From Eubacterium sp. (GTDB lineage: Bacteria > Bacillota > Clostridia > Oscillospirales > Acutalibacteraceae): a DNA stretch of 64,000 bases. The DNA lies in contig JAFUEH010000005.1 in NCBI GenBank assembly GCA_017463985.1, positions 2,005 through 66,004 of the forward strand, written 5' to 3'. Both the position numbers and the translations under genes were made by a program. The notes under the pieces are model-generated. The model was not told where the DNA came from and did not search any database. It saw nothing but the letters and a program-made list of their open reading frames with translations. Positions 35,972-62,893 of the stretch are shown in pieces (the stretch's first letter is position 1; every line of letters starts with the position of its first letter).

Positions 35972-35982
35972 GAGGTGATACA

Positions 35983-40483: not shown

Positions 40484-40497
40484 TACAATTCGGTTTG

Positions 40498-40526: not shown

Positions 40527-40545
40527 GGAAAGGAAGGCACTGAAT

Positions 40546-41577: not shown

Positions 41578-41593
41578 CAGAAAGAGGTTATGT

Positions 41594-42301: not shown

Positions 42302-42311
42302 GGAGGATATT

Positions 42312-43630: not shown

Positions 43631-43726
43631 AGAATAAGCCGTGAATACGGATGGAAAAAGACCAGCGCCTCTCGTTATACGTCGCACCATTTTTCCATAA
43701 CGCAATATAAAAATTATAGGTATACC

Positions 43727-43762
43727 AAAAACGCCCTGCAAGCTGATGCTTGCAGGGCGTTA
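43727..43762. terminator. Bidirectional terminator
   Basis: AACGCCCTGCAAGC-TGAT-GCTTGCAGGGCGTT perfect 14-bp stem. Confidence 0.8.
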
Positions 43763-43767
43763 CACGG

Positions 43768-44577
43768 TTATTGTATTTTCTCGGTAAAAAAGTCATAGAG
43801 TCTTTGACGAAAATCCGGCGCCGTGTCATAGACAGCGTGACCGTAGCCGTCGTACAGCAGCAGGGTGCACGGCCGATCCCGCAGCAGTGAAGCGATCGCG
43901 TGCGTTGCCTCCACGCCAAGCACGGCGTCAGTCTGATCCCCTGCTATCAGCACGGGACACGCGATAGCCGACAGCTCACGGGTAGCGTCAAAGCCGACAG
44001 TACCCGTTGCAAGAATCACGAAACGCTTTAGCTCCTCTTCCGTTACACCGGCAGCGGCAGCAACCAGCGCAGCGCGGTATGAGGCAAAAACAGCTGGCGG
44101 ATATACCGCTTTCCCGAAAGATAAGTACAAACCTTCCCTGTCCCCTTTCTCCGCCAGCGCGATCCACTGTCCGATCACGGGCTGCGCCTCCTCGCGTACG
44201 GAAGCCGCGGTAGAGCACAGCGCTAATTTTGATACCAGTGACGGATAGCGTGCCGCCACGGTCATGGCGATCATGCCGCCCTGCGAAGCGCCGAACAGGC
44301 AAATATTTTTTAATCCGAGCCGCCTGATTGCCGTTGCCGTATCCTCGGCCATATCGCTGACAGAATACAAGTCCGGCAGCTCGTTACGGCGGTCAAACAC
44401 ATAGACTGTGAAAGCCTCCGCCATCACTGCATATTCCTCAGCAATCGCCGCGGCAGCGCCCATCACGCTCTGAACGCTCAGTCCAGGCAGGATGACCATC
44501 GTTTGGCTGCCGCTGCCGAAGCAAAAATAATCCATCGTAAAATCGGCGGCTACTACTGTACCTCTTTGCATCGTCAT
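43768..44577 (-). CDS. Alpha/beta hydrolase
   Basis: Nucleophile elbow FGASQGG, C-terminal GYGH. Confidence 0.8.
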   Translation of the reverse strand: MTMQRGTVVAADFTMDYFCFGSGSQTMVILPGLSVQSVMGAAAAIAEEYAVMAEAFTVYVFDRRNELPDLYSVSDMAEDTATAIRRLGLKNICLFGASQGGMIAMTVAARYPSLVSKLALCSTAASVREEAQPVIGQWIALAEKGDREGLYLSFGKAVYPPAVFASYRAALVAAAAGVTEEELKRFVILATGTVGFDATRELSAIACPVLIAGDQTDAVLGVEATHAIASLLRDRPCTLLLYDGYGHAVYDTAPDFRQRLYDFFTEKIQ

Positions 44578-47050: not shown

Positions 47051-47126
47051 TCCTCTTTAGCTCAGTTGGTAGAGCACTCGGCTGTTAACCGAGTTGTCGC
47101 TGGTTCGAGCCCGGCAAGGGGAGCCA
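47051..47126 (+). tRNA. tRNA-Asn (anticodon GUU)
   Basis: Cloverleaf folded by hand. Acceptor TCCTCTT/AAGGGGA (one G-U), D-arm AGCTCAGTTGGTAGAGC, anticodon arm CTCGG-CTGTTAA-CCGAG, T-arm GCTGG-TTCGAGC-CCGGC, encoded CCA. Confidence 0.95.
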
Positions 47127-47542: not shown

Positions 47543-48892
47543 TTACATTGATTGCTCAAAGCCGTAATCGTCTTCGACTTTTTGACCGTGAGCGAGCTTC
47601 TTTTCTTTCTCCTTTTGGGAGAGCCGTGCGTGCTTTCTGCGTGGCTTATGCGTTTGGTTATCAATCATTTCAAATAGATTTCCAACAAAATATAGGCTGT
47701 CAGAAATAACACTTGGACGGCTGTAGGAATTCCAATCAGCAGTGGCAGGAGTTTCTTCCTGATATCCGAAGTTGTTTCCGACAGATTGTTTATCTGAAAG
47801 CCAAACTGTTCGTTCTGCCTCCCAACCTGTTGTGATAACGCTTCCGTCTTGTCGGATATACTTTCCGTCATCTTTTTGGATGCCGTTTCCGCCGCTGATT
47901 CGATTGCTGTCTTCTGTTTTTCCAGAACGCCTTTTACGGCTTGCAGCGATGTTTCGTCCGCTTTGTCCAGAGCCACGTAATAAATCGCTGTCAGTTGGTC
48001 GCACTGTGTCTGCTGTAGTTCTATCATCTTTTCCCACATTTTCGTATCGACTATCGTAAGATTGGTTGCCTTTTCCATCTGCTGAATGGCGGCTGCGTTC
48101 TTCTGCTTCAAGCTTTCGAATTTCGAATTCATAAGTCATTTCCTCCTTTCTGTATTTTTCTTCGTGGAGTTTTATGTCGCGGCATTTCATACCGTTTGGA
48201 CAAGTATAAGTGATATATTTTCTTTCGCTTGTCCACCTGACCTGGTAGCCGTGTTGTTTCATAAATTCAAAGAAGTCGTGTTTGTTTTTACATTGCTTCA
48301 TCGCCGCATCAATTACAAACATCAATTCAAACTTCCAGCTCGCACCTTTTTCAGCCGCACGAAGTTCGCCTTGTTCCAAACCCGAAGGTGTATTGTAATC
48401 ATACGGTTTCAGAACTTTTGCGCCGTGGCGCTGACAAATATCATCGCTCAACTTACGCAGGTGTTTGAGTGTCTGTGGACTCTGTCGGAGCCGCTTCCCC
48501 GTTTCAAGATTTATCGGGCTGATGATGAAGTGATTATGCAGATGTCCTCTGTCAATATGCGTTGCGACTAACACCTGATGATTAGTCCAAGCCTTTTCAG
48601 CAAACTCCAGACCGATAGCGTGGACTTCATCAGCAGTTATTTCTTCCTTTGAATCGAACGACTGAATATATTGATAGAAGAAACGCTCGCTATAATTAGT
48701 CCCCTTGAACGGATAAGCACTGCGTGTCAGCATCATTTCGTTGTAGGCATTAAGCCCGTTACAGTTGATACCCGACACGTAACGCATACTGTTATAGGCG
48801 AGCGTTTTCTTTTCCTGTGTAACATATTCAATCGACTTCTGCAGTGCCGTTTTACTTTGGTGAGAGTTTTTTACAAATTTCACTATTGGCAT
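47543..48892 (-). CDS. Relaxase / mobilization nuclease (MobA/VirD2 family)
   Basis: ATG at 48892 (MPIVKF) behind AGGAGA. Catalytic-Tyr region N-terminus and histidine triad HIDRGHLHNHFII. Long low-complexity C-terminal half. Confidence 0.9.
   Translation of the reverse strand: MPIVKFVKNSHQSKTALQKSIEYVTQEKKTLAYNSMRYVSGINCNGLNAYNEMMLTRSAYPFKGTNYSERFFYQYIQSFDSKEEITADEVHAIGLEFAEKAWTNHQVLVATHIDRGHLHNHFIISPINLETGKRLRQSPQTLKHLRKLSDDICQRHGAKVLKPYDYNTPSGLEQGELRAAEKGASWKFELMFVIDAAMKQCKNKHDFFEFMKQHGYQVRWTSERKYITYTCPNGMKCRDIKLHEEKYRKEEMTYEFEIRKLEAEERSRHSADGKGNQSYDSRYENVGKDDRTTADTVRPTDSDLLRGSGQSGRNIAASRKRRSGKTEDSNRISGGNGIQKDDGKYIRQDGSVITTGWEAERTVWLSDKQSVGNNFGYQEETPATADWNSYSRPSVISDSLYFVGNLFEMIDNQTHKPRRKHARLSQKEKEKKLAHGQKVEDDYGFEQSM
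47665..48132 (-). CDS. Candidate overprinted gene inside the relaxase gene (coiled-coil plus C-terminal TM, 155 aa)
   Basis: Alternative frame open for 155 codons. ATG preceded by AAAGGAGG at 9-nt spacing. Protein-like product ending in TM LLPLLIGIPTAVQVLFLTAYILL. Confidence 0.4.
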   Translation of the reverse strand: MNSKFESLKQKNAAAIQQMEKATNLTIVDTKMWEKMIELQQTQCDQLTAIYYVALDKADETSLQAVKGVLEKQKTAIESAAETASKKMTESISDKTEALSQQVGRQNEQFGFQINNLSETTSDIRKKLLPLLIGIPTAVQVLFLTAYILLEIYLK

Positions 48893-49199
48893 CTGCAATC
48901 TCCTGAAGCAAAACAATAATTTCGTTTTGCTTTTCAAGCACTTTGTCAAAGTTATATGACCTGACAGCGCCGCTATTAATCTTTCTTGCTATCTGATTAA
49001 TGTTGTTACCCATACGATTCATTTCAGCAACGGCGGGCTTCAAATCTTCGGGAACAAATATCAGCGGATGGCAAGTAGCGGCGACAATAAAATCAGTTAA
49101 ATTCATCTTTGCCTTTTGCGCCTGTTCTGTGATTCTACGCTTTTCTTTATCGGTCAGACGAACCGTAAGCGTATTATTTCGTTTTCTGTTTTCGTTCAT
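48852..49199 (-). CDS. mobC: Relaxosome accessory protein MobC
   Basis: RHH-like TVRLTDKEKRRITEQA and the MobC motif MNRMGNNINQIARKINSG. RBS TAGGAGA. Confidence 0.9.
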   Translation of the reverse strand: MNENRKRNNTLTVRLTDKEKRRITEQAQKAKMNLTDFIVAATCHPLIFVPEDLKPAVAEMNRMGNNINQIARKINSGAVRSYNFDKVLEKQNEIIVLLQEIADANSEICKKLSPK

Positions 49200-49870: not shown

Positions 49871-51013
49871 ATGGTTTATCTTGAGAGAGATGAGGTAGGA
49901 ATCTACAACCCAACCTATTTTTCAATTGACATTGTTGACGACCATTTTATGATGGGCGGAAAGAAATATATTCTCGGACAGTTCATGGCTGACGTAGCCA
50001 ATCTGTCCACGGAATATATCAAGGGATTATTAAGATTAAGCATCCGCTTGTTTCAGAATTATTCAGAGATACAAGTTGCCGGAGGATATATAAAAGATAA
50101 CTTTGTTAAGGCAAAAGAACAGGTTAACGAAATCTTAAACTATATTCAGGACACAGCACCGTTTTGCTATTACAACATTGACCAGGCAAGAGTGCTCTTG
50201 GATAAATATTTCTGTGACAGCAGTTATGAAAAATATGATTCACTAAATTCAACAGAGGATATTTCCCTGCTTGACGACGCAAATCGACTTTTGAAAAGCT
50301 TTTGTTATATAGCAAATGACATTGCGAATTTTAATCTTGTAATTATCAACTTTACCGCGTTCATTATGAGCGGCGGGTCAAGAAAAAAGGATAGTTTAGC
50401 TGCCGATGCATTTGTGTTTTTTTCGAGTGAAAAGTACATGAAATATTTTGAGACGGCGAATGCAATTCCGTATATGGCAGGAGTGAATTTAAGACCTTGG
50501 GTTACGCAAGTTCCCGTTGCGATTCCCGATTATGAAACAGAAAGCGTAACCATTGCCCGCCGTTTGTATTTCACCAGGTTTATGGACTTTCTGATTACGG
50601 AGTTATTTGAAGCGTTAAGCCACGGGCATTACCTTTGGAGGTGCGGCGTGTGCGGTAAATATTTTTTGATGACTACTGCCCGCAGACAGTTGTACTGTTC
50701 CGACGTAAACGAAGAATACGGCGTTCCCTGTTCCTACGCTGCAAGTCATCCTGACGTGATAAAAAAGAAACTTGAAAAGGAAAACAAGAAAAACTCGCCG
50801 ATATATATTCTCTGGCAGAGGCGGTATAACTCTATCAGAAAAAATAAAAGCAACGGCAAATACAGCGACGCCGTATCTGCTGAAGCCAAGAAGATTATTG
50901 ATGCGAAACGTGACAGAGCACGTATTGATTTTGATTACGCAAAAAATGAATATGAAAAAGAAATGGAATTGAATTTAATCTATGAAGAGGCAATCAGAAA
51001 TGTGGATGGATGA
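49871..51013 (+). CDS. Hypothetical protein with Cys4 motif
   Basis: 380 aa. CGVCGKYF-x11-YCSDVNEEYGVPCSY (CxxC...C...C). RBS GGTGAGGTGA. Confidence 0.7.
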   Translation: MVYLERDEVGIYNPTYFSIDIVDDHFMMGGKKYILGQFMADVANLSTEYIKGLLRLSIRLFQNYSEIQVAGGYIKDNFVKAKEQVNEILNYIQDTAPFCYYNIDQARVLLDKYFCDSSYEKYDSLNSTEDISLLDDANRLLKSFCYIANDIANFNLVIINFTAFIMSGGSRKKDSLAADAFVFFSSEKYMKYFETANAIPYMAGVNLRPWVTQVPVAIPDYETESVTIARRLYFTRFMDFLITELFEALSHGHYLWRCGVCGKYFLMTTARRQLYCSDVNEEYGVPCSYAASHPDVIKKKLEKENKKNSPIYILWQRRYNSIRKNKSNGKYSDAVSAEAKKIIDAKRDRARIDFDYAKNEYEKEMELNLIYEEAIRNVDG

Positions 51014-51902
51014 ATTCAATGAAGAGTTCGACGTAATGGAATCGGAACGTGCTGATGCTAAAGATTATGACGCAGACAGCGAGTACGATATCGTTATTAC
51101 GGACAGACCGTTCATCTATCAAATGAAAAAACCGCCGCCTCGGCTTGACGATTTAAACGATTACTTCGTTAAATACAAAACCGAGAACGACGGCGGATAT
51201 ATAGAGCAGTTTCTTCATTATTATGAGGGAATACTTAACAGCAGAGTCTGGCGGTTCATTATGAATTTTCATCTTGAACCGAACAGGCGTGATGACCTGA
51301 AACAGATTTTCTGCGACGTTATGCTTGAAAAGCTGTCGGACTTATCCCCTGATGATGAAGTGGTTTTTCTTCAGCAAATCAAATATATCGTTCAGGGCGA
51401 GTGGCGTAATTATGTTCGCACCTGCTGCAACTCTGTATACGTTGACAAGGTCGGCACTTACGATAATATTCGCAAGGTGGCACGGCTGTATTATGAAAAG
51501 GAAGGACTCGTTCCTTATGATGAGTTGGTAAGCGAAATAGCAGAGAAAGTTAAACTCACCGCAAGAACGGTTGATAGATTTATTAAAGATGCACTGTCTG
51601 CGAGATACGCAGACGATATTGATAATGATGAAACGCCGGAGCCCGCTGCGTCTGAACCTGAGGATAATTATACAAGGGAAGAAATAGTTGAATCGTTTAG
51701 AGTATTAGACCCGATTGAGCTGCGCATATTGGAGCTCTATGCAGGCGTTGACACGAAAACCTTTGAGATGATTCCGCCGCTGAGCTATGACCGTATTGCA
51801 ATGATGACGGGCTATGATTCCGAAAGCACGATTGAAAAGAAACTCAAGGAAATCAAGGCGAAGGTTAAGGAAGAATTAATTTATATCCATTACGGAGAAT
51901 AA
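51000..51902 (+). CDS. Sigma-70-like protein (region 2-like and region 4-like HTH)
   Basis: C-terminal LELYAGVDTKTFEMIPPLSYDRIAMMTGYDSESTIEKKLKEIKAKV resembles sigma region 4. Mid-region DDLKQIFCDVMLEKL is region 2-like. ATG at 51000 behind GAAGAGG; the ORF opens at 50982. Confidence 0.55.
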   Translation: MWMDEFNEEFDVMESERADAKDYDADSEYDIVITDRPFIYQMKKPPPRLDDLNDYFVKYKTENDGGYIEQFLHYYEGILNSRVWRFIMNFHLEPNRRDDLKQIFCDVMLEKLSDLSPDDEVVFLQQIKYIVQGEWRNYVRTCCNSVYVDKVGTYDNIRKVARLYYEKEGLVPYDELVSEIAEKVKLTARTVDRFIKDALSARYADDIDNDETPEPAASEPEDNYTREEIVESFRVLDPIELRILELYAGVDTKTFEMIPPLSYDRIAMMTGYDSESTIEKKLKEIKAKVKEELIYIHYGE

Positions 51903-51937
51903 GCGTACCCGTTGCTGACGGATACGCTTATTTCGTT
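51901..51937. terminator. Terminator between convergent genes
   Basis: AAGCGTA..CCGT-loop-ACGG..TACGCTT followed by ATTTCGTT. Confidence 0.55.
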
Positions 51938-51948: not shown

Positions 51949-52662
51949 TTAATTCTTTGTTTGTGACGAGATATTGTTAATTATTTCTTGTGTTATAATG
52001 TCTCTTTTAATCTCCCATGTTTTTGAGTCGATGCAAAAAAGATTATCAAGAAACAGTAAAAAAATATTATCAAATTTATAAATCCAATTTGGCTTGTTAT
52101 ACAATTCTTTTATTGACGAAACAAATAGGCTAATCAGATCATCTATTATTTCTTCTTGGCAAATACAGTAATTTAGTTGTTCTTGTACTATTATGCATAA
52201 ATCATTTCTGCTAAACAATCTATAATGATTATTAAGTTTGCAGAGTTTTTCAGATATGGCATGCATTATATCGTCCGCAGTGGATTCATTTGTTATCAGT
52301 TTTCCAAAATAAAAACATAATACAAGATTACCAGACTCTTTTTCTTTGTAATAATATAAACAACTATTTTGGAGACTTCTCTGTGCATATAGTATTTCAT
52401 TTGAATCAACAGATACAGGAGCTCCATTGAACCCCATTTTCTTCAACTGTTTTTTTGAAATAACTTGAAGCGGTTTATTCAGGTTCTTTCTACAGAAAGC
52501 ATCAACTTCACCATTTTTTGTGGTTATGGCGCGGGTTATCTCAAGTCCAGTTGTATTGTTGTAGTAATCTGGAGCTTCCCCTTTAATCATATTGGTAACA
52601 TTAGGGTAAAAAAAGCCAAGAATGCTTATTGCGTATTCTTCGTAATCGTTTTTATTCCACAT
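51949..52662 (-). CDS. Orphan protein, last gene of the 8-gene operon (gene H)
   Basis: 237 aa, RBS AAGGTGA, 12-nt gap after gene G. No recognisable domain. N-terminal E..-PD-..LEITR arrangement weakly reminiscent of PD-(D/E)xK nucleases. Confidence 0.7.
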   Translation of the reverse strand: MWNKNDYEEYAISILGFFYPNVTNMIKGEAPDYYNNTTGLEITRAITTKNGEVDAFCRKNLNKPLQVISKKQLKKMGFNGAPVSVDSNEILYAQRSLQNSCLYYYKEKESGNLVLCFYFGKLITNESTADDIMHAISEKLCKLNNHYRLFSRNDLCIIVQEQLNYCICQEEIIDDLISLFVSSIKELYNKPNWIYKFDNIFLLFLDNLFCIDSKTWEIKRDIITQEIINNISSQTKN

Positions 52663-52674
52663 TTAATCACCTTG

Positions 52675-54567
52675 TTAAAATAGCATTTGATCAACTGCCT
52701 CTTTGGCTTCTTTTAGGTTCACATTGAAAGTTTCACAATATTTTTTTATGGCTTCAATTTTGTTCTCGGAAGCAAGTTTTTTTATTTCTCCAAGTATTTC
52801 ATCATTTTCGTTGTCATAACTTGTTGAAGAATTCGAATCAGATGCGTTATCGTATTCATCATTTTCTGCAATCTTATCAACAGCTTCTTTTGCTTCTGCT
52901 AAACCTACACCATATAATTCAATATACTTCTTGATTGCCTCCATTTTGTTTTCAGAAGCAAGTTTCTTGATTTGATTCTTATTGTTTTCGTCTTCTTTAT
53001 TCACATATTTCTTGCTTTTCTTGTTTTTAACAGTGATGCTTTCACTGCACATTATTTCAAGAACTTCATCATCGCTCTTTGGCAGAAACCCTTGAACATT
53101 TGATAAGTTATCATAGTTACTATATCCATTAATGAATTTAGCAGCTGTTTTTTCTAAATAAGTTTTTCTTGGCGCCATAAGGTTTGCGTTTTTTTCTGTT
53201 GCCATAACTTGTTTGTTCTTTAGCGATATGCTTCTTACAATCAAATCAATAATACCGCCAATTAGTCCAAGAATCATAAAAACAATTCCACCGATGACTA
53301 ATCCGTCTGGTGCTTTATAACCCATTTTGTTATCTATCTGTATCATGATAACCCCGATTATGAATCCGCAAGCCATAATCCCTAATCCCGGTATAACATT
53401 TAGTTTCTTTTTTGTCAGTTCTTCGGTTTCTTTATTACTTTCAAACAGTTCTTTTTCTATAGGATAAACCATTTCCATGAAAGAATAGTTCTTAGACATA
53501 TCTATTACTGCACTGAATTTTTGATTTTTATAAGTATAATTGATGATGCAAATAGGAATGAAAATACTTACCCACGTATTTTTGCTAACATAAAAACGAG
53601 AATTCATATTTTCTACATAATTACCACCCGCACTACGTGCCGCTATACTTTCAGCAGTATTTCTTGCGCTGCTAAGCATATTCTGCATCTTGCTTTTTAC
53701 AAGTTCAGAATCCATATCGATGCAAATTGGAATCTCTTTATAAAAAGCTGTTTCGCCAGTGTCCTCAAGTAGCTTCGCTTCAAGTTTTATAAGATTATCT
53801 GAAGAATAGCCATCGTCAAATGTTCCCTCAACCTTTTTAATTATACTTTTTGCTGCACTATTGCATTTTATTGCTTTTTCTATTGTCTTAGTTGCTAAAA
53901 CGAGTCTTGAATCGCTCCAATCCTCTCGCCCATTAACAGGGGTTCGGTTCACTTTAACAACGCGTTCGGTTTTGGGAACCTGTTCCCATTGTTTTTTGTC
54001 AGAATTATATTCTCTTTTATATACGGTTTGGTTTTCAAAATATTCATCGCAACGAATTGCGCTCCAATCAAGAGTTCCGGATGCTTTCATGAACGTAAAG
54101 GGATAATACATTTCCGTAACGTCGTCGATGGATATTTCTTTATAAATAGTGTGCGCGATGTTTTTTTGTGATTGTAATGCCATAAAGAAATTGTTAACGC
54201 ATTCTTCCTTTGTTGTATTTGCGTCAAATGCGTATACATCTTTAAAGGCTGACTCCAATTCTTGCTCTTTTGCAATCTCATCTAATCTATCTTGAGCCTT
54301 TTCATTATCGGGATCTGCATCGAGCACCCTTTCATAGTATTCTATAGCTCTGTCTGTATCCCCGTCCTCATAAAACCTTTCTGCTCGTTTTGTAAGGTTT
54401 TCAACATCTTCAGTATGGTCAATTTTAACTTCACCTTTTATTTCAACCAACAGTTTTGACACGTCATTTTTTGAGTATTGCACGCCGCAACTTTGACACT
54501 CAAAGAGGTCGTCACCTACTTTTTTTATTTCTGTGCTACCGCATACTTCACACTGTATTTTTTTCAT
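52675..54567 (-). CDS. Zn-ribbon / TPR / 2-TM protein with two C-terminal L7/L12-CTD-like modules (gene G)
   Basis: N-terminal CEVCGS...CQSCG. TPR-like RAERFYEDGDTDRAIEYYERVLDADPDN. Two adjacent TM helices. Duplicated KKLASENK(M/I)EAIKKY....G..L.EAKEAVD. RBS TAGGAGA. Confidence 0.8.
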   Translation of the reverse strand: MKKIQCEVCGSTEIKKVGDDLFECQSCGVQYSKNDVSKLLVEIKGEVKIDHTEDVENLTKRAERFYEDGDTDRAIEYYERVLDADPDNEKAQDRLDEIAKEQELESAFKDVYAFDANTTKEECVNNFFMALQSQKNIAHTIYKEISIDDVTEMYYPFTFMKASGTLDWSAIRCDEYFENQTVYKREYNSDKKQWEQVPKTERVVKVNRTPVNGREDWSDSRLVLATKTIEKAIKCNSAAKSIIKKVEGTFDDGYSSDNLIKLEAKLLEDTGETAFYKEIPICIDMDSELVKSKMQNMLSSARNTAESIAARSAGGNYVENMNSRFYVSKNTWVSIFIPICIINYTYKNQKFSAVIDMSKNYSFMEMVYPIEKELFESNKETEELTKKKLNVIPGLGIMACGFIIGVIMIQIDNKMGYKAPDGLVIGGIVFMILGLIGGIIDLIVRSISLKNKQVMATEKNANLMAPRKTYLEKTAAKFINGYSNYDNLSNVQGFLPKSDDEVLEIMCSESITVKNKKSKKYVNKEDENNKNQIKKLASENKMEAIKKYIELYGVGLAEAKEAVDKIAENDEYDNASDSNSSTSYDNENDEILGEIKKLASENKIEAIKKYCETFNVNLKEAKEAVDQMLF

Positions 54568-54699
54568 GAATTATTCTCCTATTGTATAATCCTTTGTGAT
54601 TTTCATCGCAAACAAGATTGAACAAATTCTATTACGTGATTGCCATATTAGTATAATAATTGTGTGGATATCCTGATTGTGGTATTTATAATGAACCCT

Positions 54700-56142
54700 T
54701 TATATTAAAGAGTTGTCCGTTCTTATTCCTGACCACTCATTAACATTAGCTTCTCCCCAGTCGTTTCGTTTTGTAATAACAACAGTCCCGTTCTTTTTTA
54801 AGCCAACGGTACTACATATACTCGCTGAAACATCAATAATATCTGACCACGAAGAAACATCGCATTGACCGTAGTCATTATCTCCGGTGGCAACAACCGT
54901 TCCGTCTCTTTTTAATCCTAAAGTATAGTATTCTCCTGCCTCGACAGCAACAATATCTGCCCAGGTCTGCACATTACATTCGTTGTGATCGTTATAACCT
55001 ACTGATACTACTGTCCCGTTCTTTTTTAGACCAACTATATGTCCCCAACCCGCTGAAATATCGATTATTTCTGTCCAGCTTGAAACATCATCTTTCCCTT
55101 TGAATTCAGGACCAGCTATGACTACGCTTCCATCTTTTTTTAGCCCGACACTACTCCAACTTCCTGCTGCAATTGCTACAATATCCGTCCAACCCTGCAC
55201 ATTGCATTGTCCGTTAGTATTGTTACCGATAGCAACAACCGTTCCATCGCACTTTAATCCTAGTGAATGCTCACCGCCTGTAGAAATAGCAACAATATTA
55301 TCCCAATCTTGCACATTGCACTGCCCCTGTTCATTATTACCTGTTGCGACAACAGTGCCATCCTTTTTCAGTCCTAATGTATGATCGCTTGCGGAAACAG
55401 ATATAATATCACTCCACGTACCTATATTGCATTGCCCGTCATCATTGTCACCGGTTGCAACAACCGTTCCTTCATATTTTACGGCTACTGTGTGTCTGTT
55501 TCCGGATGAAACAAACGATAAATCAGTGCGGTTACTTAAATAAGTATTTGCATACAACTCACTATACTTTTCTGCTGAGTCTTTATAATTTCCTAGTTTA
55601 CCATATATTTCAAGCGCTTTTGCGGATTTTCCTTCATTATAGTGAGTTTCCGCACTATTATATTGACTAGCAGGAATAATAACAGTAGTTATAACTATTA
55701 CAAAAACAATTATGCCTGCAACAATAGGAGCAGTTATTATCGCAATACGGTTTCTTTTCTTTTTTGTTGCTATTTGTTTTTGCTTTTCTTCCAACTGCTT
55801 TTTCTCATTGTTTATCTTTATTTTTTCAATTGCTTTGTTGCACTCAGAAATTCTGTTAGAAGAATCTTTCCAGTCGGGAATTTGCATAAAAAACAATATA
55901 GCATCTTCATAACTTGAAATATCATCATCTTGCATTTTTTCGATGCCATTTTTATAGATTTCGTCCTTTTTTATCTTTTCCGCTCTTTCTCGACATTCAA
56001 GTGCAAGTTGCTGTGAGTTTTTATAATCACCCAACATTTCAAAAGCTTCTGCTGTTTTAATTAATGTTATTTCTGAATTATCATTGCTTTCCAGCATGTC
56101 CAATGAAAGCTGATACAATTCTTCATTGTCAAAACTATCCAT
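54700..56142 (-). CDS. Helical N-domain / single TM / seven-blade RCC1-like beta-propeller protein (gene F)
   Basis: Three LGDYK(N/D)S-type helical motifs, TM IAIITAPIVAGIIVFVIVITTVII, then 7 repeats of about 38 aa (H..GLK.DGTVVATG.N..GQCNV..W.DIVAI.AG). RBS GAGGGAG. Confidence 0.85.
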   Translation of the reverse strand: MDSFDNEELYQLSLDMLESNDNSEITLIKTAEAFEMLGDYKNSQQLALECRERAEKIKKDEIYKNGIEKMQDDDISSYEDAILFFMQIPDWKDSSNRISECNKAIEKIKINNEKKQLEEKQKQIATKKKRNRIAIITAPIVAGIIVFVIVITTVIIPASQYNSAETHYNEGKSAKALEIYGKLGNYKDSAEKYSELYANTYLSNRTDLSFVSSGNRHTVAVKYEGTVVATGDNDDGQCNIGTWSDIISVSASDHTLGLKKDGTVVATGNNEQGQCNVQDWDNIVAISTGGEHSLGLKCDGTVVAIGNNTNGQCNVQGWTDIVAIAAGSWSSVGLKKDGSVVIAGPEFKGKDDVSSWTEIIDISAGWGHIVGLKKNGTVVSVGYNDHNECNVQTWADIVAVEAGEYYTLGLKRDGTVVATGDNDYGQCDVSSWSDIIDVSASICSTVGLKKNGTVVITKRNDWGEANVNEWSGIRTDNSLI

Positions 56143-56199
56143 TATTCTCCCTCAATTTTTAAGTTATCTGTTGATAGGTGCCAACCATCGTTTTATCTG

Positions 56200-56904
56200 T
56201 TACTTTTTTAACGCCTTACATTTACTGTTTCTGTCGTTTACAAGGTTGATTAATTCTTCTGATGATGTTGCTGCAAGGTCAACATCATCATTTTTTATTG
56301 CGTCGGAGAAGGCTATAAACTCGTTTTTGATTTGTGTTTCGATATCATTTAATTGCGGCGAGCTCATCGGATCGCTGTAGCGAACTGCCTCGTAAACTTT
56401 CTTCGCCAGTGCTTTTGTTTCGTCTGATTTTGCCCTTGAGATGAGAGATTCTGCATCTACCGTAAGCATTCTTATGTATGCTGTCTTTTCCTTAACCTTA
56501 TGCTCAACGGTGTTGATAATATCTGCCGCTGCAACTGCTTTTACAATTGCGATTGCATAAAACGCAAGAATGAGTACGTCAACGCTTATTCCAACCCAGT
56601 ACGGAATAGCGGGAACTGCCATTGCAATTGCGCCAACAATCAGCGAAGCAACTAACGCACCGAAGGCATAGTGCATAACGGACAGCTTTAAGAATGTTTT
56701 GTTTCTGTTTTCTTCTTTAAAGAAGGTAAAACTGCAACCAAGATTGCCGATAAATACAAGAGTAATAAATGCATAAGCAATCCAGAAGGAAGTTCCGACA
56801 TTTTTAAGACCGACGGTATTACCTGCTACGATGAATACTATAACGTTAAATACCGCAAGGGCAATTGCCCAGCATATCGCATAATACTTAAAAAACTTTT
56901 TCAT
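56200..56904 (-). CDS. Four-TM membrane protein with cytoplasmic helical tail (gene E)
   Basis: 4 predicted TM helices in the first ~135 aa, then an amphipathic helical C-terminus (..VYEAVRYSDPMSSPQLNDIE..). RBS AAGGAGG, 13-nt gap after gene D. Confidence 0.8.
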   Translation of the reverse strand: MKKFFKYYAICWAIALAVFNVIVFIVAGNTVGLKNVGTSFWIAYAFITLVFIGNLGCSFTFFKEENRNKTFLKLSVMHYAFGALVASLIVGAIAMAVPAIPYWVGISVDVLILAFYAIAIVKAVAAADIINTVEHKVKEKTAYIRMLTVDAESLISRAKSDETKALAKKVYEAVRYSDPMSSPQLNDIETQIKNEFIAFSDAIKNDDVDLAATSSEELINLVNDRNSKCKALKK

Positions 56905-56917
56905 TGTTGCTACCTCC

Positions 56918-58051
56918 TTACATTATGCTTGAGAGAAGCTGCGCTTTAAGGTTATTGAATTCTTCCTCGGTGAGCATTCCGGCTTCTTTCATCATTGTTA
57001 GCTTTTCAATTTTTGCTTTGAACGCCGCCATATCATCCTGCGGCTGTGCCTGAGGAGCAGGCTGATTAGCAGAATCGAGCGCACCGCTTACGGCACTTCC
57101 TACTACTCCTCCGACTGCGCCGCCAACACCTGCCATAGTGCCAAATCCAACACCCATATTGGTAAACTGTCCTACGGCTTCATTCTTTGCAACATCCTGT
57201 GCAACATCAAATCCGCGTTCCTGTTGATAGGTGTAGCCTTCCTGTGCACGTTTAGTTGCCATCGCCTGCGACTCGATAACCGTTCTCTGCGCCTGGGTTT
57301 CTGCGTCGATAACTGCGGTCTGCTGACGGAGCTTTGCCTCCGCAATATCAGCATACTGACGGAAATGGAGTGACTTAAATTTTTCGTATGAAGCGTCGCC
57401 GTCCGGCTTAACGATTACGGTTAAGAAGAAGCGCTCAAGTGCAACGCCATATTCAAGAAAATCGGGTTGAAGCATTTTATGTAAATCTTTTGAAATCTCG
57501 TCAAGGCGCTCGTCAATTTCAAAAATGCTGATTTTCTTCTCACGGATAACCTGTGCGAGATAGGACTTAACCTTCGTCATAAGGATTGCACGGAAGTACT
57601 TCATCAAGCCAGCTTGGCCGAGATAATTCTCAGTACCTACTAACTTAATAAGCAGTTTTCTTGAATCGTCAACACGAAGAGCCATTTCACCGCTAGCGCC
57701 TATTGAAATCGGGAAGTTATATGTAGGCTCCATAAACTGAACCTTACTGTCCGTTCCCCATTTGATAGCCATCTGCTCGGTTTTATTGATAAAGTAAACT
57801 TCGCAGTGGAACGGCGTTTTACCGTCAGTAGGAAGCGTAATTGCTTTACCAATAAGCGGAATATTCTGCGTTTCAAGCGTATGCCTGCCAGCACCGAACA
57901 AATCGAGCGCTTGACCGTTCATAAAAAATATCGCTTCCTGCGACTCATGAACGATGAGCTGCGTCATCGTGTTAAAATCTTCGCACGGGTGCTTCCAGAT
58001 AAAGGTACTGTTATCGCCCTCATATTTAATTACATCAACAATTTTTGCCAT
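56918..58051 (-). CDS. SPFH (Band 7, YdjI/COG4260-like) protein with Gly-zipper segment and C-terminal SHOCT domain (gene D)
   Basis: N-terminal IVDVIKYEGDNSTFIWKHPCEDFNTMTQLIVHESQEAIFFMNGQ typical of the Band_7_1 family. GVGFGTMAGVGGAVGGVVGSAVSGAL. C-terminal KIEKLTMMKEAGMLTEEEFNNLKAQLL (SHOCT). RBS AAGGAGAG. Confidence 0.85.
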   Translation of the reverse strand: MAKIVDVIKYEGDNSTFIWKHPCEDFNTMTQLIVHESQEAIFFMNGQALDLFGAGRHTLETQNIPLIGKAITLPTDGKTPFHCEVYFINKTEQMAIKWGTDSKVQFMEPTYNFPISIGASGEMALRVDDSRKLLIKLVGTENYLGQAGLMKYFRAILMTKVKSYLAQVIREKKISIFEIDERLDEISKDLHKMLQPDFLEYGVALERFFLTVIVKPDGDASYEKFKSLHFRQYADIAEAKLRQQTAVIDAETQAQRTVIESQAMATKRAQEGYTYQQERGFDVAQDVAKNEAVGQFTNMGVGFGTMAGVGGAVGGVVGSAVSGALDSANQPAPQAQPQDDMAAFKAKIEKLTMMKEAGMLTEEEFNNLKAQLLSSIM

Positions 58052-58137
58052 TTATTATCTCTCCTTCATTCGAGTTGTCAATCTTCTCTTTGCTAAATTC
58101 TGTTTTATAATATCACAGATCTGTCAATATACTTGAT

Positions 58138-59970
58138 TTAATTGCCCTTATCAATTAATAACTGTTTACTTCTCTCTGCCATTTCAAGATTTCTTTTAGC
58201 AGTGTTAATCTTTTCTTTTTTTAACGGTTTCCTCTTTTTGCCAATAATTCCAAAAACAATTGAAGCTATTGAGATTAAACCTACAAATCCAATAAATGCG
58301 TTTACATTTTCACTGGCTGTATGGACTTTGTCAACAAGAATGCACGTAATAATAAACTCTATTATTCCGAAAAACAGAGTAATTGTCGGTCTGTGCTCGT
58401 ATTTCAATATCTGCATTCTGTATTTATTTATTTCACTGTTAATCTTGTTGAGTTCAGCCTGATAGTCGCTATTATTGTTTTGATTTGCAGAAGAATTCTC
58501 AATCGGCTGGGGTTGACTAATAGCGCTTGCCTTAGTGCCTTGTGATGCCTCGTAAACAATATCGTCAATAGTTTTAGGCTGTTTACGCTCTTCCATAAAT
58601 CTTCTTGTGGTAGCATTTATTTCTCTTACTATTTGACTATATTCATCATCACCTAAAGAATAATCCAGAACGTCGCCAAACGAATCACTATTAACTTTCA
58701 TCTGAATCCATTGCTGCATATTTATTCTAATATCACGAGGTTTCGCACCATCTTGAGGACCAATAATGCCTTTTTCTTCAAGTTGATCCATAAGTTTTAC
58801 GCCTCTCGAATAACCTACGCTAAGTTTGCGTTGTAAAAAGGAGGTAGAGGCTCTTCCTTCTTGTAAAACAATTTCAACCGCTTGTTCAAATAATGGGTCA
58901 AGCATATCAGATTCTTTTTCATCTAACGCAAAGTTTGGATCGTTTTGGGCTGCTTTTTGTTCTATCTCGTTTTGAATCGCATCACCATAAACTTGTTTGG
59001 TAATATATTCCCTTAATTCACCAACAACTTCGTCGCTTATGTAACACGATTTTATTTGCTTTAACTCAGACGTACCTAATGGAAGATAGAGCATATCGCC
59101 AACTGTTGTAAGTCTTTCTGCACAACTACGGTCAAGTATATACCTGGATTCGGCTTTGGTGCGGAGGACAAAAGATAACTTTGATGGAATAGAATTCTTT
59201 ATTCTGTCGGGTAGAAACTTTCTGTCAGCCTGCAACGATGAAATAATTAAGTGCATTCCACAAATTCGTCCGTTTTGAATAATCTTTAGAACACTATCTT
59301 CTATTTCTTTTGGTACTTGTGAATACACTTGATAAAAATCATCAATGATGATTACCATAGGAGTCATAATCTCCATATCATCATGACTTTCAACAAATCT
59401 GTTGTATCCGTTAATATCGCGAACACCTGTATCTGAAAATGCCTGCATCCTTCTTAATGACTCAGAAACTGCCCAGCCAAGCGCACCACTTGCTTTCCTC
59501 GGATCGGTAATAATGGGCACAATTAAATTAGGCGAGTTATCGAAATCAACAAACTCTATTTTCTTTGGGTCAATCAATAACAGCTTGGGACTATAATAAT
59601 TGTGTTTACATAAGAAAGAGAATATTATTGAACGCAGGCAATTCGTTTTACCGTAACCCGAAGCGCCGGTAATAAGCAAATGCTGTAATTTTTCTAAATC
59701 GCCATAGATAAGATTTCCTTTATAATCCTTGCCTAAAGCGAAGGTCAGCTCACTGCTGTTATTTAAGAATTCTTTATTTTCGGTTAACTCTTTTATGTCA
59801 ACGTGGTAATCCGGCTTTTGAACTATAGTAAATCTATTGTTATCGCTTTTATTGCTATCGTCAAAGTAGAACACAGTTTGTTTTGTTCCGCATGATTCAC
59901 AAACAGCGATTTTATCACCCTTATTCAATGACAGATTGCCACCGCATATTTCACATTTTAATACTGCCAT
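58138..59970 (-). CDS. FtsK/SpoIIIE-family motor (alpha-beta-gamma) with N-terminal Zn ribbon and C-terminal TM anchors (gene C)
   Basis: CEICGG...CESCG. HLLITGASGYGKTN (Walker A), LLLIDPKKIEF, VIIIDDF (Walker B-like), gamma-domain DPLFEQAVEIVLQEGRASTSFLQRKLSVGYSRGVKLMDQLEEKGIIGPQDGAKPRDI. Two C-terminal TM helices. RBS AAGGAG. Confidence 0.9.
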   Translation of the reverse strand: MAVLKCEICGGNLSLNKGDKIAVCESCGTKQTVFYFDDSNKSDNNRFTIVQKPDYHVDIKELTENKEFLNNSSELTFALGKDYKGNLIYGDLEKLQHLLITGASGYGKTNCLRSIIFSFLCKHNYYSPKLLLIDPKKIEFVDFDNSPNLIVPIITDPRKASGALGWAVSESLRRMQAFSDTGVRDINGYNRFVESHDDMEIMTPMVIIIDDFYQVYSQVPKEIEDSVLKIIQNGRICGMHLIISSLQADRKFLPDRIKNSIPSKLSFVLRTKAESRYILDRSCAERLTTVGDMLYLPLGTSELKQIKSCYISDEVVGELREYITKQVYGDAIQNEIEQKAAQNDPNFALDEKESDMLDPLFEQAVEIVLQEGRASTSFLQRKLSVGYSRGVKLMDQLEEKGIIGPQDGAKPRDIRINMQQWIQMKVNSDSFGDVLDYSLGDDEYSQIVREINATTRRFMEERKQPKTIDDIVYEASQGTKASAISQPQPIENSSANQNNNSDYQAELNKINSEINKYRMQILKYEHRPTITLFFGIIEFIITCILVDKVHTASENVNAFIGFVGLISIASIVFGIIGKKRKPLKKEKINTAKRNLEMAERSKQLLIDKGN

Positions 59971-59987
59971 AACAGTACTCCTTAAAT

Positions 59988-60494
59988 CTATGATTTGATT
60001 TTTCCGATTAAAGCAAGCACAGCTGACATAACAACAACTGAAATAATAATTGCCGTAGCGGTTGGTGACAAATCGCCTGCTTTAAGATGATATATGATGT
60101 ATACTGCACCTGCTATAGCGGCGCCAATCAGCAACAAAAACAGAACCAGAATAATTATTCCAATTTTTCCGTCGTTTTTATCCGATTGTCCTTTTGCTTC
60201 TTCTCGCTTCTTTTCGGCTTCCTTCAGCTCAAGCAAACGGCTTTCGCAATATGATATTTTTTCACGTGCCTCTTTTAAAAACGAAATCGTGTTTAACTGA
60301 TTAATTGCATCGGTATATTCTTCAACAGAATTCATGTGCATTTTTAAGTCTGCGTTCTTATATATTCTGTGAATTCTGTCAAGTTCCTTACAGTCTGCTA
60401 CAACCGAGTTTCCACAATTTTCGCAAACGGCATATTCTGAATTCAGGGAATAAGCCATTGTTCCGCCGCACATTTCACATTTTTGTGTAGCCAT
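59988..60494 (-). CDS. Zn-ribbon / coiled-coil / 2-TM protein (gene B)
   Basis: CEMCGG...CENCG, coiled coil, C-terminal hydrophobic helices IGIIILVLFLLLIGAAIAGAVYII and AIIISVVVMSAVLALIG. The start overlaps the stop of gene A (TAATG). Confidence 0.8.
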   Translation of the reverse strand: MATQKCEMCGGTMAYSLNSEYAVCENCGNSVVADCKELDRIHRIYKNADLKMHMNSVEEYTDAINQLNTISFLKEAREKISYCESRLLELKEAEKKREEAKGQSDKNDGKIGIIILVLFLLLIGAAIAGAVYIIYHLKAGDLSPTATAIIISVVVMSAVLALIGKIKS

Positions 60495-60688
60495 TACTTA
60501 TCCTCGCTGATTTCTAAATTATCAATAGAAAATTCCAGACATCTCTGCATTATATCGTTTCTTGTTCTGCCAGTAGTTTTTGCAATTTCGTCAAGCGTTG
60601 CAACAAGCTCAACAGGTAACCGTAAAGAAATAACTGATGTTTCTCCCTGGTACTTTTTCATAGTAATTTTCAACTTCCTATCCGACAT
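60494..60688 (-). CDS. Ribbon-helix-helix (CopG/Arc-like) regulator (gene A)
   Basis: ISLRLPVELVATLDEIAKTTGRTRNDIMQRCLEFSI is an RHH pattern. ATG at 60688 behind GGGTGA. The ORF-track start at 60736 lies upstream of the predicted TSS. Confidence 0.75.
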   Translation of the reverse strand: MSDRKLKITMKKYQGETSVISLRLPVELVATLDEIAKTTGRTRNDIMQRCLEFSIDNLEISEDK

Positions 60689-60724
60689 ATTTTCACCCGC
60701 TTTTAAGTATAATATATCGACTAT

Positions 60725-60753
60725 ATTGTAATACATTTGTAGTTTGTTGTCAA
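60725..60753 (-). promoter_or_regulatory. Consensus sigma-A promoter of the 8-gene operon
   Basis: Minus strand reads TTGACA (60753-60748), 17-nt spacer, TACAAT (60730-60725). Confidence 0.65.
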
Positions 60754-61469: not shown

Positions 61470-62306
61470 TCAAGCGGTTATTTTCAAAATCAGTTCCTTA
61501 CAAATGCTTGAAACGCTTTCCCACGAAATATCGCCAACATAGAAATTTCTGCTTTTGTAATTATCCCACTGTTTTTTCATTGTTTCGCTTTCTGCAACGG
61601 CAGTATATATTTCAACAATATCTTTTATCTGATTTTCGCTGTTTCTCGCCTTACAGGTCGCATTAAACGCCGCGGATAAGTCGGCGTAATTTATCTGCTC
61701 GTTTTCAACAATAATATAAACGTCATAATAATCTCGCATACGGGTATTTGTTTCCGCCCTGACCATAATTGTCTGCAGTTTCTCAGCGAGTAGTGTTTCA
61801 ATATTATAACTCATAACAGAAATGGTTCTGTTTTCAAACATCAGTGGGTATTCATAATGCACAGCCGACGGTGTAATGACATCGCCCGTAGAAATATCGA
61901 GCTTAATCGGCTGCCTTGAGTTTTCAAAATATGCGTTCAGTTTAATTCTGACACCGGGGTAATCAAACTCATCCATAATCGTTTCCGCATCGGTTATTTC
62001 AAAAGAAACGTTATCATCAAGCTTAATGCTGATAATAAATTCTACAACGCTCTTCGCTTCTTCAACTGACAAGCTAAGTGACGTAATCGTGCTGTCAATA
62101 TCCATTGTTGCTCTCATATCCAGTCCGACTAATGAAGCAACGAGCATACCGCCTTTAAGTATGAAATTGTTTTTGTAATCCGAAAGCGAGACCCTTTCAA
62201 GGAAGCGTTCCATCATATAATTCCTGAAGAGAGTCTGTGCTTTTTCGGCGTTACCGTCCGAAAGGTTATTTATCTTATCCTTTAACTGTCTTGTCGTTTT
62301 AATCAT
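61470..62306 (-). CDS. abiEii: AbiEii/AbiGii-family nucleotidyltransferase toxin
   Basis: N-terminal LKDKINNLSDGNAEKAQTLFRNYMMERFLERVSLSDYKNNFILKGGMLV...DMRATMDIDST pattern of DUF1814/AbiEii. Confidence 0.9.
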   Translation of the reverse strand: MIKTTRQLKDKINNLSDGNAEKAQTLFRNYMMERFLERVSLSDYKNNFILKGGMLVASLVGLDMRATMDIDSTITSLSLSVEEAKSVVEFIISIKLDDNVSFEITDAETIMDEFDYPGVRIKLNAYFENSRQPIKLDISTGDVITPSAVHYEYPLMFENRTISVMSYNIETLLAEKLQTIMVRAETNTRMRDYYDVYIIVENEQINYADLSAAFNATCKARNSENQIKDIVEIYTAVAESETMKKQWDNYKSRNFYVGDISWESVSSICKELILKITA

Positions 62307-62893
62307 AGCATTACCTCGGTATATATTCTTACTTTGTCTTCAATCTTCATCATTTTTGCATATTGCATAAGATTGTGCAGATTCTTATCTTTGCGTTTCA
62401 TATATTCTTTGATGGCGAACTGAAACACCTGAATATCCATTTTATCTTTGATTTTAATAATATCGCAGATAGTTCTGTCAATATCATACACGGGAACGGA
62501 GTTTCCCTGATTTGTATTGACGGTTGTCTTGCCCACGTTCAGCATATCTTTCAAATCGGTATATACGCGGCAATTACGCTTTCTTAATCGGCTGGCGTTA
62601 TAGCCTTTGCCAACGGTTAAAGAGACCTGATTCGGCTCCTGTTCTGTCAAGCCGTGCAGATACAGCGCCGTTTCGTGAGAGAATACGATATTGTTTCTTA
62701 AACTGATAATATAAAGCTCATCTACCCAAGTGTCGCCATCAACGTAAACTCCTGGCGCTGCCTTTTCCATATTTTTCTTTTTAATAAATTCGCTGATATA
62801 TTGCTTTGAAATTCCGGCATTAACTGCGTCAGCAACAATTAAATAACCGTTGCCGTTTTTCGTCTGCCTTTCAAGCATTTCATTCTTCGTCAT
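62303..62893 (-). CDS. abiEi: AbiEi-family antitoxin / transcriptional regulator
   Basis: NGYLIVADAVNAGISKQYISEFIKKKNMEKAAPGVYV...FSHETALYLHGL. 4-nt overlap with the toxin gene. RBS AGGTGA. Confidence 0.9.
   Translation of the reverse strand: MTKNEMLERQTKNGNGYLIVADAVNAGISKQYISEFIKKKNMEKAAPGVYVDGDTWVDELYIISLRNNIVFSHETALYLHGLTEQEPNQVSLTVGKGYNASRLRKRNCRVYTDLKDMLNVGKTTVNTNQGNSVPVYDIDRTICDIIKIKDKMDIQVFQFAIKEYMKRKDKNLHNLMQYAKMMKIEDKVRIYTEVML

Follow-up and report, generated by a model that had tools for sequence, protein, structure and literature searches.

An FtsK-bearing operon of Eubacterium sp. as a possible TIR-less member of an SPFH-centred family of membrane conflict systems in gut Clostridia

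Introduction

A 64,000-nt stretch of Eubacterium sp. DNA (Acutalibacteraceae; assembly GCA_017463985.1, contig JAFUEH010000005.1, positions 2,005 to 66,004 of the forward strand), hereafter called the window, carries eight minus-strand genes, here g1 to g8, that raise a simple question: what is the function of an operon that combines an SPFH protein, an FtsK-like protein and an RCC1-like propeller at the membrane? The initial annotation, made without database searches, recognized no named system in it and proposed an eight-gene anti-phage, anti-plasmid or envelope-stress machine with an FtsK-like motor acting on DNA at the membrane.

In the current study, we conclude, with a probability of roughly 0.55, that g1-g7 are a TIR-less, FtsK-bearing variant of a membrane conflict-system family that is widespread in gut Clostridia, and we infer that it acts in defence against phages or other mobile elements. 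The family is real, conserved and apparently undescribed; the evidence for defence is circumstantial and comes from several independent lines. The features of the operon and of the related loci, which are cited by their numbers in our census (L007 and so on), are collected in Table 1.

Results

The SPFH alignment, searched against genomes that represent one species each, matched at least 232 species, most of them gut and rumen Clostridia (Oscillospiraceae, Acutalibacteraceae, Christensenellaceae and Lachnospiraceae), together with a few Planctomycete and Anaerolinea metagenome-assembled genomes whose binning is uncertain. The census comprised 82 loci, all with the SPFH gene, which was the search bait. 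The gene right after it encodes a protein with four transmembrane (TM) segments in 77 of the 82; among the five others, L048 and L064 break at a contig end and the gene list of L020 ends at the SPFH gene. The constant core of the family is the soluble SPFH/SHOCT protein (g4 in the window) followed by the four-TM protein (g5), amid changeable head proteins, and g5 is an obligate partner of g4. This recurrence answers the concern of the initial annotation that homologues might never co-occur outside this genome, and the SPFH protein, the scaffold in its proposal, stands as the conserved part at the centre of the family.

In g4, the SPFH domain is followed by a coiled region, an invariant Gly-zipper segment (residues ~296-325), a PQ linker and SHOCT, and hydropathy gave no TM segment. 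The SPFH part of the earlier SPFH/SHOCT call is firm (Table 1), whereas the SHOCT match (25.2 bits, E 1.3e-5) is slightly below the Pfam cut-off of 27. The protein is 75-87% identical across loci. Purifying selection was seen throughout g2-g8, with ratios of nonsynonymous to synonymous substitution (dN/dS) of 0.02-0.18 against diverged orthologues and 0.03 for g4, all of them approximate as dS is saturated for several pairs. The four TM segments of g5 noted earlier were also found here by hydropathy; the protein has no match in Pfam, NCBIfam, PADLOC or PHROGs, and yet its family has 2201 representatives at E<=1e-3 (50% clustering).

Orthologous operons with the same core are present at L007, L013, L016, L017 and L098. 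Those that contain an orthologue of g3 repeat the RHH gene, again in first position (62-95% identical), the SPFH/SHOCT gene (75-86%), the four-TM gene (45-84%) and a g2-like head protein (55-57%; L007, L016 and L017), and they also encode one to three large TIR_2 proteins. The assignment of g1 as an RHH regulator was confirmed by Pfam.

The changeable proteins are recognizable by an N-terminal zinc-ribbon head, which is the same in FtsK, TIR, g2 and g7 proteins. Proteins with this head occur in 63 of the 82 loci, TIR in 39, DUF6273 in 22, RHH in 13, FtsK-gamma in 10, RCC1 in 7, FtsK-beta and the mid-domain of g7 in 6 each, and L12-like modules in 3. In the window, the head proteins are g2, g3 and g7, each with a TM hairpin that leaves both ends in the cytoplasm, as judged from hydropathy and charge distribution; g2 (TM segments at residues 113-131 and 146-164) is a head protein without any effector domain. 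The typical head protein of the relatives is larger, running from the head through TPR, TIR_2, a second TPR and helical repeats to a single TM segment and a C-terminal RCC1, DUF6273 or other domain.

The TIR_2 domains of the relatives exceed the Pfam cut-off, and an alignment of 61 of them contains an invariant WVKNEW motif, which we take to hold the catalytic glutamate of TIR NADases. Exactly one TM segment, located after the TIR domain, was predicted in 25 of the 27 TIR proteins that have DUF6273 or RCC1 at the C-terminus, with 5-9 Lys/Arg residues before it and 0-3 after it; therefore, the TIR domain would lie inside the cell and the binding domain outside. DUF6273 is reported to be a C-type-lectin-like domain and the variable target of diversity-generating retroelements (DGRs) in receptor-binding proteins of gut phages (PMC10743442, PMC11792537). 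No template/variable repeat pair for DGR diversification of the DUF6273 ends was found near the family loci, the sole repeat seen in this search, in L028, being a 98.7% gene remnant. An apparent module swap between L013 (645 aa) and L014 (462 + 212 aa) was also rejected; as the two loci are 99% identical, the difference is a small indel or one of gene calling.

Two further layouts were observed among the relatives. Plasmid pNP21 of Butyrivibrio fibrisolvens D1 carries a minimal version with no TIR, in which the SPFH protein has a double zinc ribbon at its C-terminus in place of SHOCT, the four-TM gene is split (by a frameshift or duplication) and a head-TPR-coiled-coil protein follows. At L007, L028 and L030, a 300-306-aa protein follows the last TIR gene and may be a further accessory component.

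The initial annotation described g3 as an alpha-beta-gamma FtsK motor. The beta (residues ~57-345) and gamma (356-416) domains were confirmed by Pfam (FtsK_SpoIIIE, PF01580, E 6e-34; FtsK_gamma, PF09397, E 7e-26), with the TM hairpin at 528-576, but the alpha domain is missing: residue 57 of g3 aligns to residue 176 of the PaFtsK construct, and PF13491 and PF17854, which represent the N-terminal four-TM anchor and alpha, are absent in g3 and its orthologues and present in the housekeeping matches. The Walker A motif is intact (GASGYGKT, kept across the system orthologues). In all system orthologues, however, Walker B reads IIDDF (D-D) instead of IDEL (D-E), and the housekeeping ATQRPS is replaced by SLQADRK, the form found in g3, or by TSQVTKK. 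The lost motifs are presumably the catalytic Walker B glutamate of FtsK and its T-Q-R sensor/arginine finger; therefore, g3 would bind ATP, with weak or no processive hydrolysis. As FtsK beta occurs in so few loci, FtsK is an accessory module, and the view of g3 as the central motor was not upheld.

The gamma domain of g3 has a history of its own. It is a median of 83%, and up to 88%, identical to the housekeeping FtsK gamma of related Clostridia and 42-82% identical to the system's own orthologues, while the beta domain shares only 48% identity with housekeeping FtsK; diverged g3 orthologues as a whole are 54-64% identical. Therefore, gamma was either captured from, or homogenized with, the host gene, and the pattern points to recent capture or gene conversion from host ftsK. 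At three loci (L026, L028 and L064), the head, TIR, TM segments and FtsK-gamma are joined in a single protein, a fusion that, from its sequence, appears to tie the DNA-binding module directly to TIR.

The RCC1 assignment of g6 was confirmed as well. Its propeller consists of seven GTVV/GSVV repeats and follows a TM segment at residues 133-151, with KKKRNR on the cytoplasmic side and 7 Lys/Arg in the 15 residues before the segment against 0 in the 15 after it, so the propeller is predicted to be exposed outside, as previously proposed. The protein corresponds to the C-terminal two thirds of zinc-ribbon-TIR-RCC1 proteins (45% identical to residues 429-853 of one of 874 aa), begins after the TIR domain, and lacks the head and TIR.

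For g7, both the TPR and the L7/L12 C-terminal-domain calls found Pfam matches, the latter only in part (Ribosomal_L12, E 5.8e-8, covering profile positions 8-37 of 67). Between the TPR and the TM hairpin (residues 391-440), and well before the two three-helix L7/L12-like modules (524-629), lies a mid-domain of ~260 residues (~111-371) that belongs to no family. AlphaFold (AF2) modelled g7 with a pLDDT of 84 overall and 92.6 in the mid-domain, which is predicted to combine helices with very long strands of 44, 32 and 30 residues. A Foldseek search with the mid-domain gave no significant neighbour in the PDB (best E 0.03, TM-score below 0.15) and two giant-virus matches at E ~1e-8, namely Yasminevirus A0A5K0UBJ7 and Edafosvirus A0A3G4ZSZ8, annotated as DnaJC3-like. 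The homologues of g7 form ~100 clusters, and its mid-domain stands in the place of TIR at L029, L046, L047, L092 and L098; therefore, TIR-less layouts are a recurrent variant and not a one-off decay. Head-TM-DUF6273 or head-TM-RCC1 proteins at L044, L050 and L059 are further TIR-less layouts. As pore-state beta-barrel toxins and secretins dominated the Foldseek list, a gasdermin-like pore was considered for the mid-domain and rejected, since 27-34% of the residues in the long strands are charged and the strands show no hydrophobic face; the likeness of the TM hairpin to the alpha-pore toxins AhlB/SmhB (TM-score ~0.13-0.25) was too weak.

The last gene, g8, does not belong with the other seven. 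It has no family match in Pfam, NCBIfam, PADLOC or PHROGs, its family comprises 13 homologue clusters only, and it is present in 2 of the 82 loci. Its homologues end the cargo region of small elements with integrase, NikA, Mob_Pre and TnpV genes, and the cargo beside them is of three kinds: the SPFH, four-TM and g7 system; two MmeI/Eco57I-like methylase-nucleases with an AAA_21 protein, resembling restriction-modification (RM); and a YukD/ThiF/UQ_con/JAB ubiquitin-like cassette. As the homologues flank differing cargos, g8 belongs to the element and not to the system, and the unit of eight genes first described is reduced to seven. The slot that g8 flanks looks like a hotspot for defence cargo.

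The operon is flanked by genes for AbiEii and its partner, DUF6809, DUF6076, NikA/MobC and a relaxase, which bears out its location on a mobilizable island with AbiE nearby. The nearby IS30 is less certain: an identical contig has an HTH_38 match, whereas the 181-aa open reading frame (ORF) in the window has no Pfam match. The island extends past the right end of the window; identical contigs carry a serine recombinase on the far side of the IS30-like gene. The operon is found with 100% conservation on at least 11 metagenomic contigs, whose flanks on the recombinase side are of two different kinds, which indicates that the island moves. At its other boundary, a tRNA-Asn (GTT) sits at the GC break where the low-GC mobilizable island starts, and it was the only hit of an Rfam scan of 46-64 kb. 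Near-identical DNA was not found in plasmid records. Other stretches of lower GC (0.39-0.48 against ~0.55 for the host) elsewhere in the window may be other acquired segments.

An AbiEi/AbiEii pair adjoins the system in four independent loci and is the commonest known defence gene seen there; HsdR and Mrr adjoin L007. Recombinases were the commonest among 140 sampled flanking proteins (five Phage_integrase and four serine recombinases), which also included single cases of type IIG RM, Old, AriA and SoFic; there is no background rate against which enrichment of such neighbours could be judged, and they are suggestive only. In addition, a gene for a ~280-aa tyrosine recombinase directly precedes the SPFH gene, in the same orientation, at nine loci (L037, L057, L061, L062, L073, L083, L093, L095 and L096; ten ORFs), with the gene split in two in L096 and a copy of 188 aa in L095.

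As for the operon itself, the ORF listing confirmed the eight minus-strand genes at the coordinates first given, together with their junctions (a TAATG overlap, then gaps of 17, 86, 13, 57, 132 and 12 nt) and a purine-rich Shine-Dalgarno site 6-10 nt before every start. The proposed promoter, TTGACA-17-TACAAT, is the top promoter-like site of the region, in which 47 such sites were counted against 32.9 expected from shuffles. The start of g1 is ATG 60688, because ATG 60736 falls inside the promoter spacer. An internal site in the 86-nt gap between g3 and g4 could, from its consensus match, drive the core genes from g4 onward separately. The hairpin proposed as a convergent terminator was likewise found; with folding energies of -21.1 (minus strand) and -19.2 kcal/mol (plus strand), it has a weak U tract and was missed by a consensus scan. 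The GC minimum of the window (0.327, at 52-54 kb) lies within the operon, which is indeed its most AT-rich stretch.

Table 1. Coordinates of the operon, its signals, its surroundings and selected features of related loci (positions in the window unless a locus is named)
Feature	Position	Strand	Evidence or remark
g1-g8 ORFs	51949-60753 (region)	-	co-directional; ORF listing
g1, RHH regulator, 64 aa	60494-60688	-	Pfam RHH_1, E 6.6e-7
g2, zinc-ribbon head, helical module, TM hairpin, 168 aa	59988-60494	-	CxxC...CxxC head
g3, zinc-ribbon head, FtsK beta, gamma winged helix-turn-helix, C-terminal TM hairpin	58138-59970	-	Pfam
g3 gamma domain	58723-58905		
g4, soluble SPFH/SHOCT protein	56918-58051	-	Pfam PF13421 (Band_7_1), E 7.5e-36
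g5, four-TM protein	56200-56904	-	N-terminus inside; 119-aa cytosolic helical tail with conserved RYSDPMS motif
g6, cytosolic helical module, one TM segment, 7-blade RCC1-like propeller	54700-56142	-	Pfam RCC1_2, E 8e-46
g7, zinc-ribbon head, TPR, new beta-rich domain, TM hairpin, two L7/L12-CTD-like modules	52675-54567	-	Pfam and AF2
g7 mid-domain	53455-54237		
g8, 237 aa	51949-52662	-	co-transcribed with the operon; mobile-element cargo-slot flank
Sigma-70-type promoter TTGACA-17-TACAAT	60725-60753	-	11/12 positions matched
Internal promoter-like site TTGACA-16-GATAAT	58054-58081	-	11/12 positions; consensus match
Bidirectional terminator hairpin	51901-51937	both	15-bp stem; common to convergent gene 50982-51902
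Second terminator	~61090-61050		closes upstream DUF6809 gene
AbiEi/AbiEii pairs	61470-62893; L017 963-2398; L083 11722-13240; L092 15435-16971		
Relaxase	47543-48949		
tRNA-Asn (GTT)	47051-47126		
Other lower-GC stretches	1-2000; ~33000-37000; ~40000-44000		
g8 homologues	L098 10001-10714; L100 10001-10714; L104 10001-10723		
Head-TIR-gamma fusions	L026 6826-9027; L028 8202-9974; L064 7752-9974		3 predicted TM segments between TIR and gamma
Minimal system, plasmid pNP21	L105 6658-10053		
300-306-aa protein after last TIR gene	L007 17746-18666; L028 16842-17744; L030 14653-15555		Pfam FRG in L007

Discussion

This study places g1-g7 of the window in a family whose SPFH and four-TM core is constant and whose head proteins change from locus to locus. 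The anti-phage or anti-plasmid role initially proposed gains from the relatives, about half of which carry TIR_2 with the invariant motif, and from the slot shared with other defence-like cargo. Several observations weigh against the defence reading. In the window copy, TIR is missing and no domain can be assigned a toxic or enzymatic activity; most of the 82 loci are flanked by housekeeping genes, with known defence genes only sporadic among the 140 sampled neighbours. Further, the three predicted TM segments of the head-TIR-gamma fusions would put the gamma domain outside the cell, although one of the three is probably not a true TM segment.

The mechanism that we propose starts from the core. 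By analogy with the recruitment of SamI by SamG/H in Bacillus subtilis, the SPFH protein may oligomerize under the membrane with g5, and the zinc-ribbon heads would dock the variable client proteins to this platform. Infection could be sensed by two candidates, the propeller that g6 would expose and the DNA-binding beta-gamma module of the FtsK-like g3; the latter would probably serve as an ATP-binding DNA sensor or clamp and not as a processive pump. Clustering on the platform could then switch on the effector. In the TIR variants, this would be NAD+ cleavage or signalling that leads to abortive infection; in the window variant, g7 is the best effector candidate. The remaining two proteins would be an RHH autoregulator (g1) and a passenger of the mobile element (g8).

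A bolder form of this proposal may be put forward tentatively, namely that the family is a new class of immune machinery in which an SPFH platform organizes single-pass TIR receptors with outside lectin-like or propeller sensors. The zinc-ribbon-head modules would be swappable and include sensors of DNA at the membrane that were captured from the host, either FtsK beta-gamma or gamma alone, and in the window operon TIR would have been replaced by the new-fold effector g7.

The conflict-system reading must be weighed first against a non-immune one, which we consider unlikely but the best of the alternatives: a module of the SamGHI/YdjGHI type for envelope stress or membrane maintenance, in which SPFH is recruited to damaged or specialized membrane, the outside domains monitor the cell wall, and TIR gives a stress signal or regulates NAD+. 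The composition of the core lends itself to such a module, as g4 belongs to the same SPFH subfamily as YdjI, has no TM segment and is accompanied by zinc-ribbon membrane proteins as YdjI is by YdjG. The housekeeping surroundings of many loci, the missing recognized toxin in the window copy and the strong constraint on the SPFH-4TM core (the approximate dN/dS of 0.03 fits a cellular function better than a gene in an arms race) are consistent with it too. Yet no PspA, PspC, TPM-domain or LiaF-type partner occurs in the window or in the relatives examined, and it is also opposed by TIR_2 in half of the loci, head proteins that vary modularly like cassettes, carriage on mobilizable islands, a plasmid and integrase-flanked elements, a cargo slot common to RM and ubiquitin-like cassettes, and a patchy distribution across species.

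A second alternative, that the operon serves the mobile island itself, appears improbable. DNA transfer, entry exclusion or maintenance would be its task; g3 would be the coupling or segregation ATPase of the relaxase-bearing element, and the membrane proteins would make up an apparatus for mating or surface exclusion. The conjugative elements of Firmicutes use ATPases of the FtsK/SpoIIIE type as coupling proteins, the operon lies between MobC/relaxase and AbiE/recombinase on a mobilizable island, and g3 has a weak PDB match to a 'DNA translocase coupling protein' (E 1.6e-10). A conjugative coupling protein was nevertheless rejected, since g3 scores 186 bits with FtsK against 15 bits with TraB (cut-off 800), TrwB_AAD_bind gave E 0.044, and the island contains no type IV secretion system (T4SS) genes, nor are type VII secretion system (T7SS) genes present. 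Moreover, g3 contains a gamma domain, absent from coupling proteins, and altered Walker B and arginine-finger motifs; its head is common to TIR proteins, FtsK beta is confined to 6 of the 82 loci, and the orthologous operons at L007 and L013 are without any relaxase.

That the window copy descends from a TIR system, lost its TIR domains by decay and now persists on the island as a non-functional remnant, as might be read from the alignment of g6 solely to the C-terminal part of zinc-ribbon-TIR-RCC1 proteins, from the direct passage of g7 from head and TPR into a non-TIR domain and from the lack of an assignable effector, is very improbable, given that every ORF is intact and has its Shine-Dalgarno site, that a consensus promoter is present, that the operon is identical on at least 11 contigs, that dN/dS is approximately 0.14 for g7, 0.02 for g6 and 0.08 for g3 against diverged orthologues, that TIR-less layouts recur elsewhere (L098, L046 and L092; L044, L050 and L059) and that the g7 family itself comprises ~100 clusters.

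If the defence reading is true, a family present in hundreds of species of gut Clostridia lies outside the current catalogues, which were built mostly from Proteobacteria and Bacilli, and an SPFH (flotillin-like) scaffold as the organizing centre of an immune system would be a new idea. Bacterial TIR proteins would then act as transmembrane receptors with outside binding domains like those with which phages bind their hosts, and the gamma domain of the chromosome-segregation protein FtsK, nearly identical to the host copy, would have been re-used as a possible DNA sensor. It would also place the large PF13421/SHOCT family, the unannotated four-TM family of ~2,200 representatives and a new protein fold that occurs in giant viruses too in a functional context for the first time. 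Lientehia hominis NSJ-141, which has a TIR version of three genes, and B. fibrisolvens D1, through its plasmid pNP21, are cultured carriers.

Comparison with Known Systems

The initial view that no named system matches the operon held up. PADLOC-DB v2.0.0 contains no system with specific matches to two or more of its components; g3 alone was matched, through its FtsK domain, as SspH (E 1e-21) or mad8 (E 3e-19). The SPFH, four-TM and TIR proteins of the relatives are unrecognized by PADLOC-DB v2, the best E of the ThsB models being 6e-4, and the PHROGs search yielded nothing informative. In the openly searchable full-text literature, as distinct from subscription-only papers, no description of the operon or the family was found. 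An Aravind-lab paper on conflict systems contains inactive FtsK and Band-7 domains only as sporadic effector or scaffold parts of other systems.

The possibility, raised earlier, that the set is a fragment of a known conjugation, T7SS or Psp locus was ruled out by searches for the defining components. For type VII secretion, the EssC/EccC models, which have cut-offs of 346-778 bits, scored 47-71, only one ATPase domain is present in g3, and Pfam found no WXG100 or YukD in the operon.

Like DndH/SspH and mad8, g3 has an FtsK-like domain, and the capture of a cellular FtsK domain by a defence protein has been described for DndH (PMC10853773), a precedent that the near-housekeeping gamma domain of g3 fits. 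Unlike those systems, the operon has no Dnd, Ssp or MADS partner genes, and g3 is distinguished by its zinc-ribbon head, C-terminal TM hairpin and gamma domain and by the replacement of the catalytic glutamate and the arginine-finger motif.

With TIR-based anti-phage systems such as Thoeris (ThsB/ThsA) and single-protein TIR NADases like SpbK on ICEBs1, the relatives share TIR_2 with a conserved glutamate-containing motif, carriage on mobile elements, and a likely outcome of NAD+ cleavage or signalling and abortive infection. In contrast to Thoeris, the window copy has no TIR, with no Pfam or PADLOC match to it in any operon protein, and the TIR proteins of the relatives are single-pass with outside binding domains and invariably stand beside an SPFH-4TM pair; a ThsA-type effector (SIR2/SLOG, Macro and others) was present neither in the window nor in the relatives scanned. 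In layout only, the relatives also resemble animal Toll-like receptors, with an outside ligand-binding domain, one TM segment and a cytoplasmic TIR that could be clustered in an SPFH microdomain. The order is reversed, TIR being N-terminal and the outside domain C-terminal, and the latter is lectin-like DUF6273 or RCC1 and not leucine-rich repeats; no homology is implied beyond TIR, which the window copy lacks.

The pairing of SPFH with a small membrane protein in one operon recalls HflK/C-FtsH, the flotillins and stomatin-NfeD, from which a role as an oligomeric platform that arranges client membrane proteins is expected. The system differs from those cages and microdomains in that a TM anchor is absent from g4, g5 matches neither NfeD nor any other Pfam family, and the clients are zinc-ribbon-tagged TIR, FtsK or unassigned-domain proteins and not a protease.

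The closest parallel is PspA-YdjGHI (SamGHI) of B. subtilis, in which the membrane proteins YdjG, with zinc ribbons and an NTF2-like domain (PMC11237479), and YdjH recruit the soluble SPFH protein YdjI/SamI (PMC8581546; PMC11237479; bioRxiv 10.64898/2026.02.06.704340). The differences are clear. SHOCT takes the place of the C-terminal zinc ribbon of YdjI, and the partner is an unrelated four-TM protein instead of the TPM-domain YdjH, with no Pfam match to TPM_phosphatase among the eight proteins. Neither the PspA nor the PspC family was matched in the window or among the Pfam matches of the related loci examined. Several head proteins with TIR, FtsK, propeller or lectin-like domains are present instead, and carriage is on mobile elements. 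The analogy drawn by the initial annotation is nevertheless sound where it matters for the core: g4 is a soluble PF13421 SPFH protein without a membrane anchor of its own, the homologue on the Butyrivibrio plasmid shares the C-terminal zinc ribbon of YdjI, and g2, g3 and g7 are, like YdjG, membrane proteins with an N-terminal zinc ribbon encoded in the same operon as SPFH.

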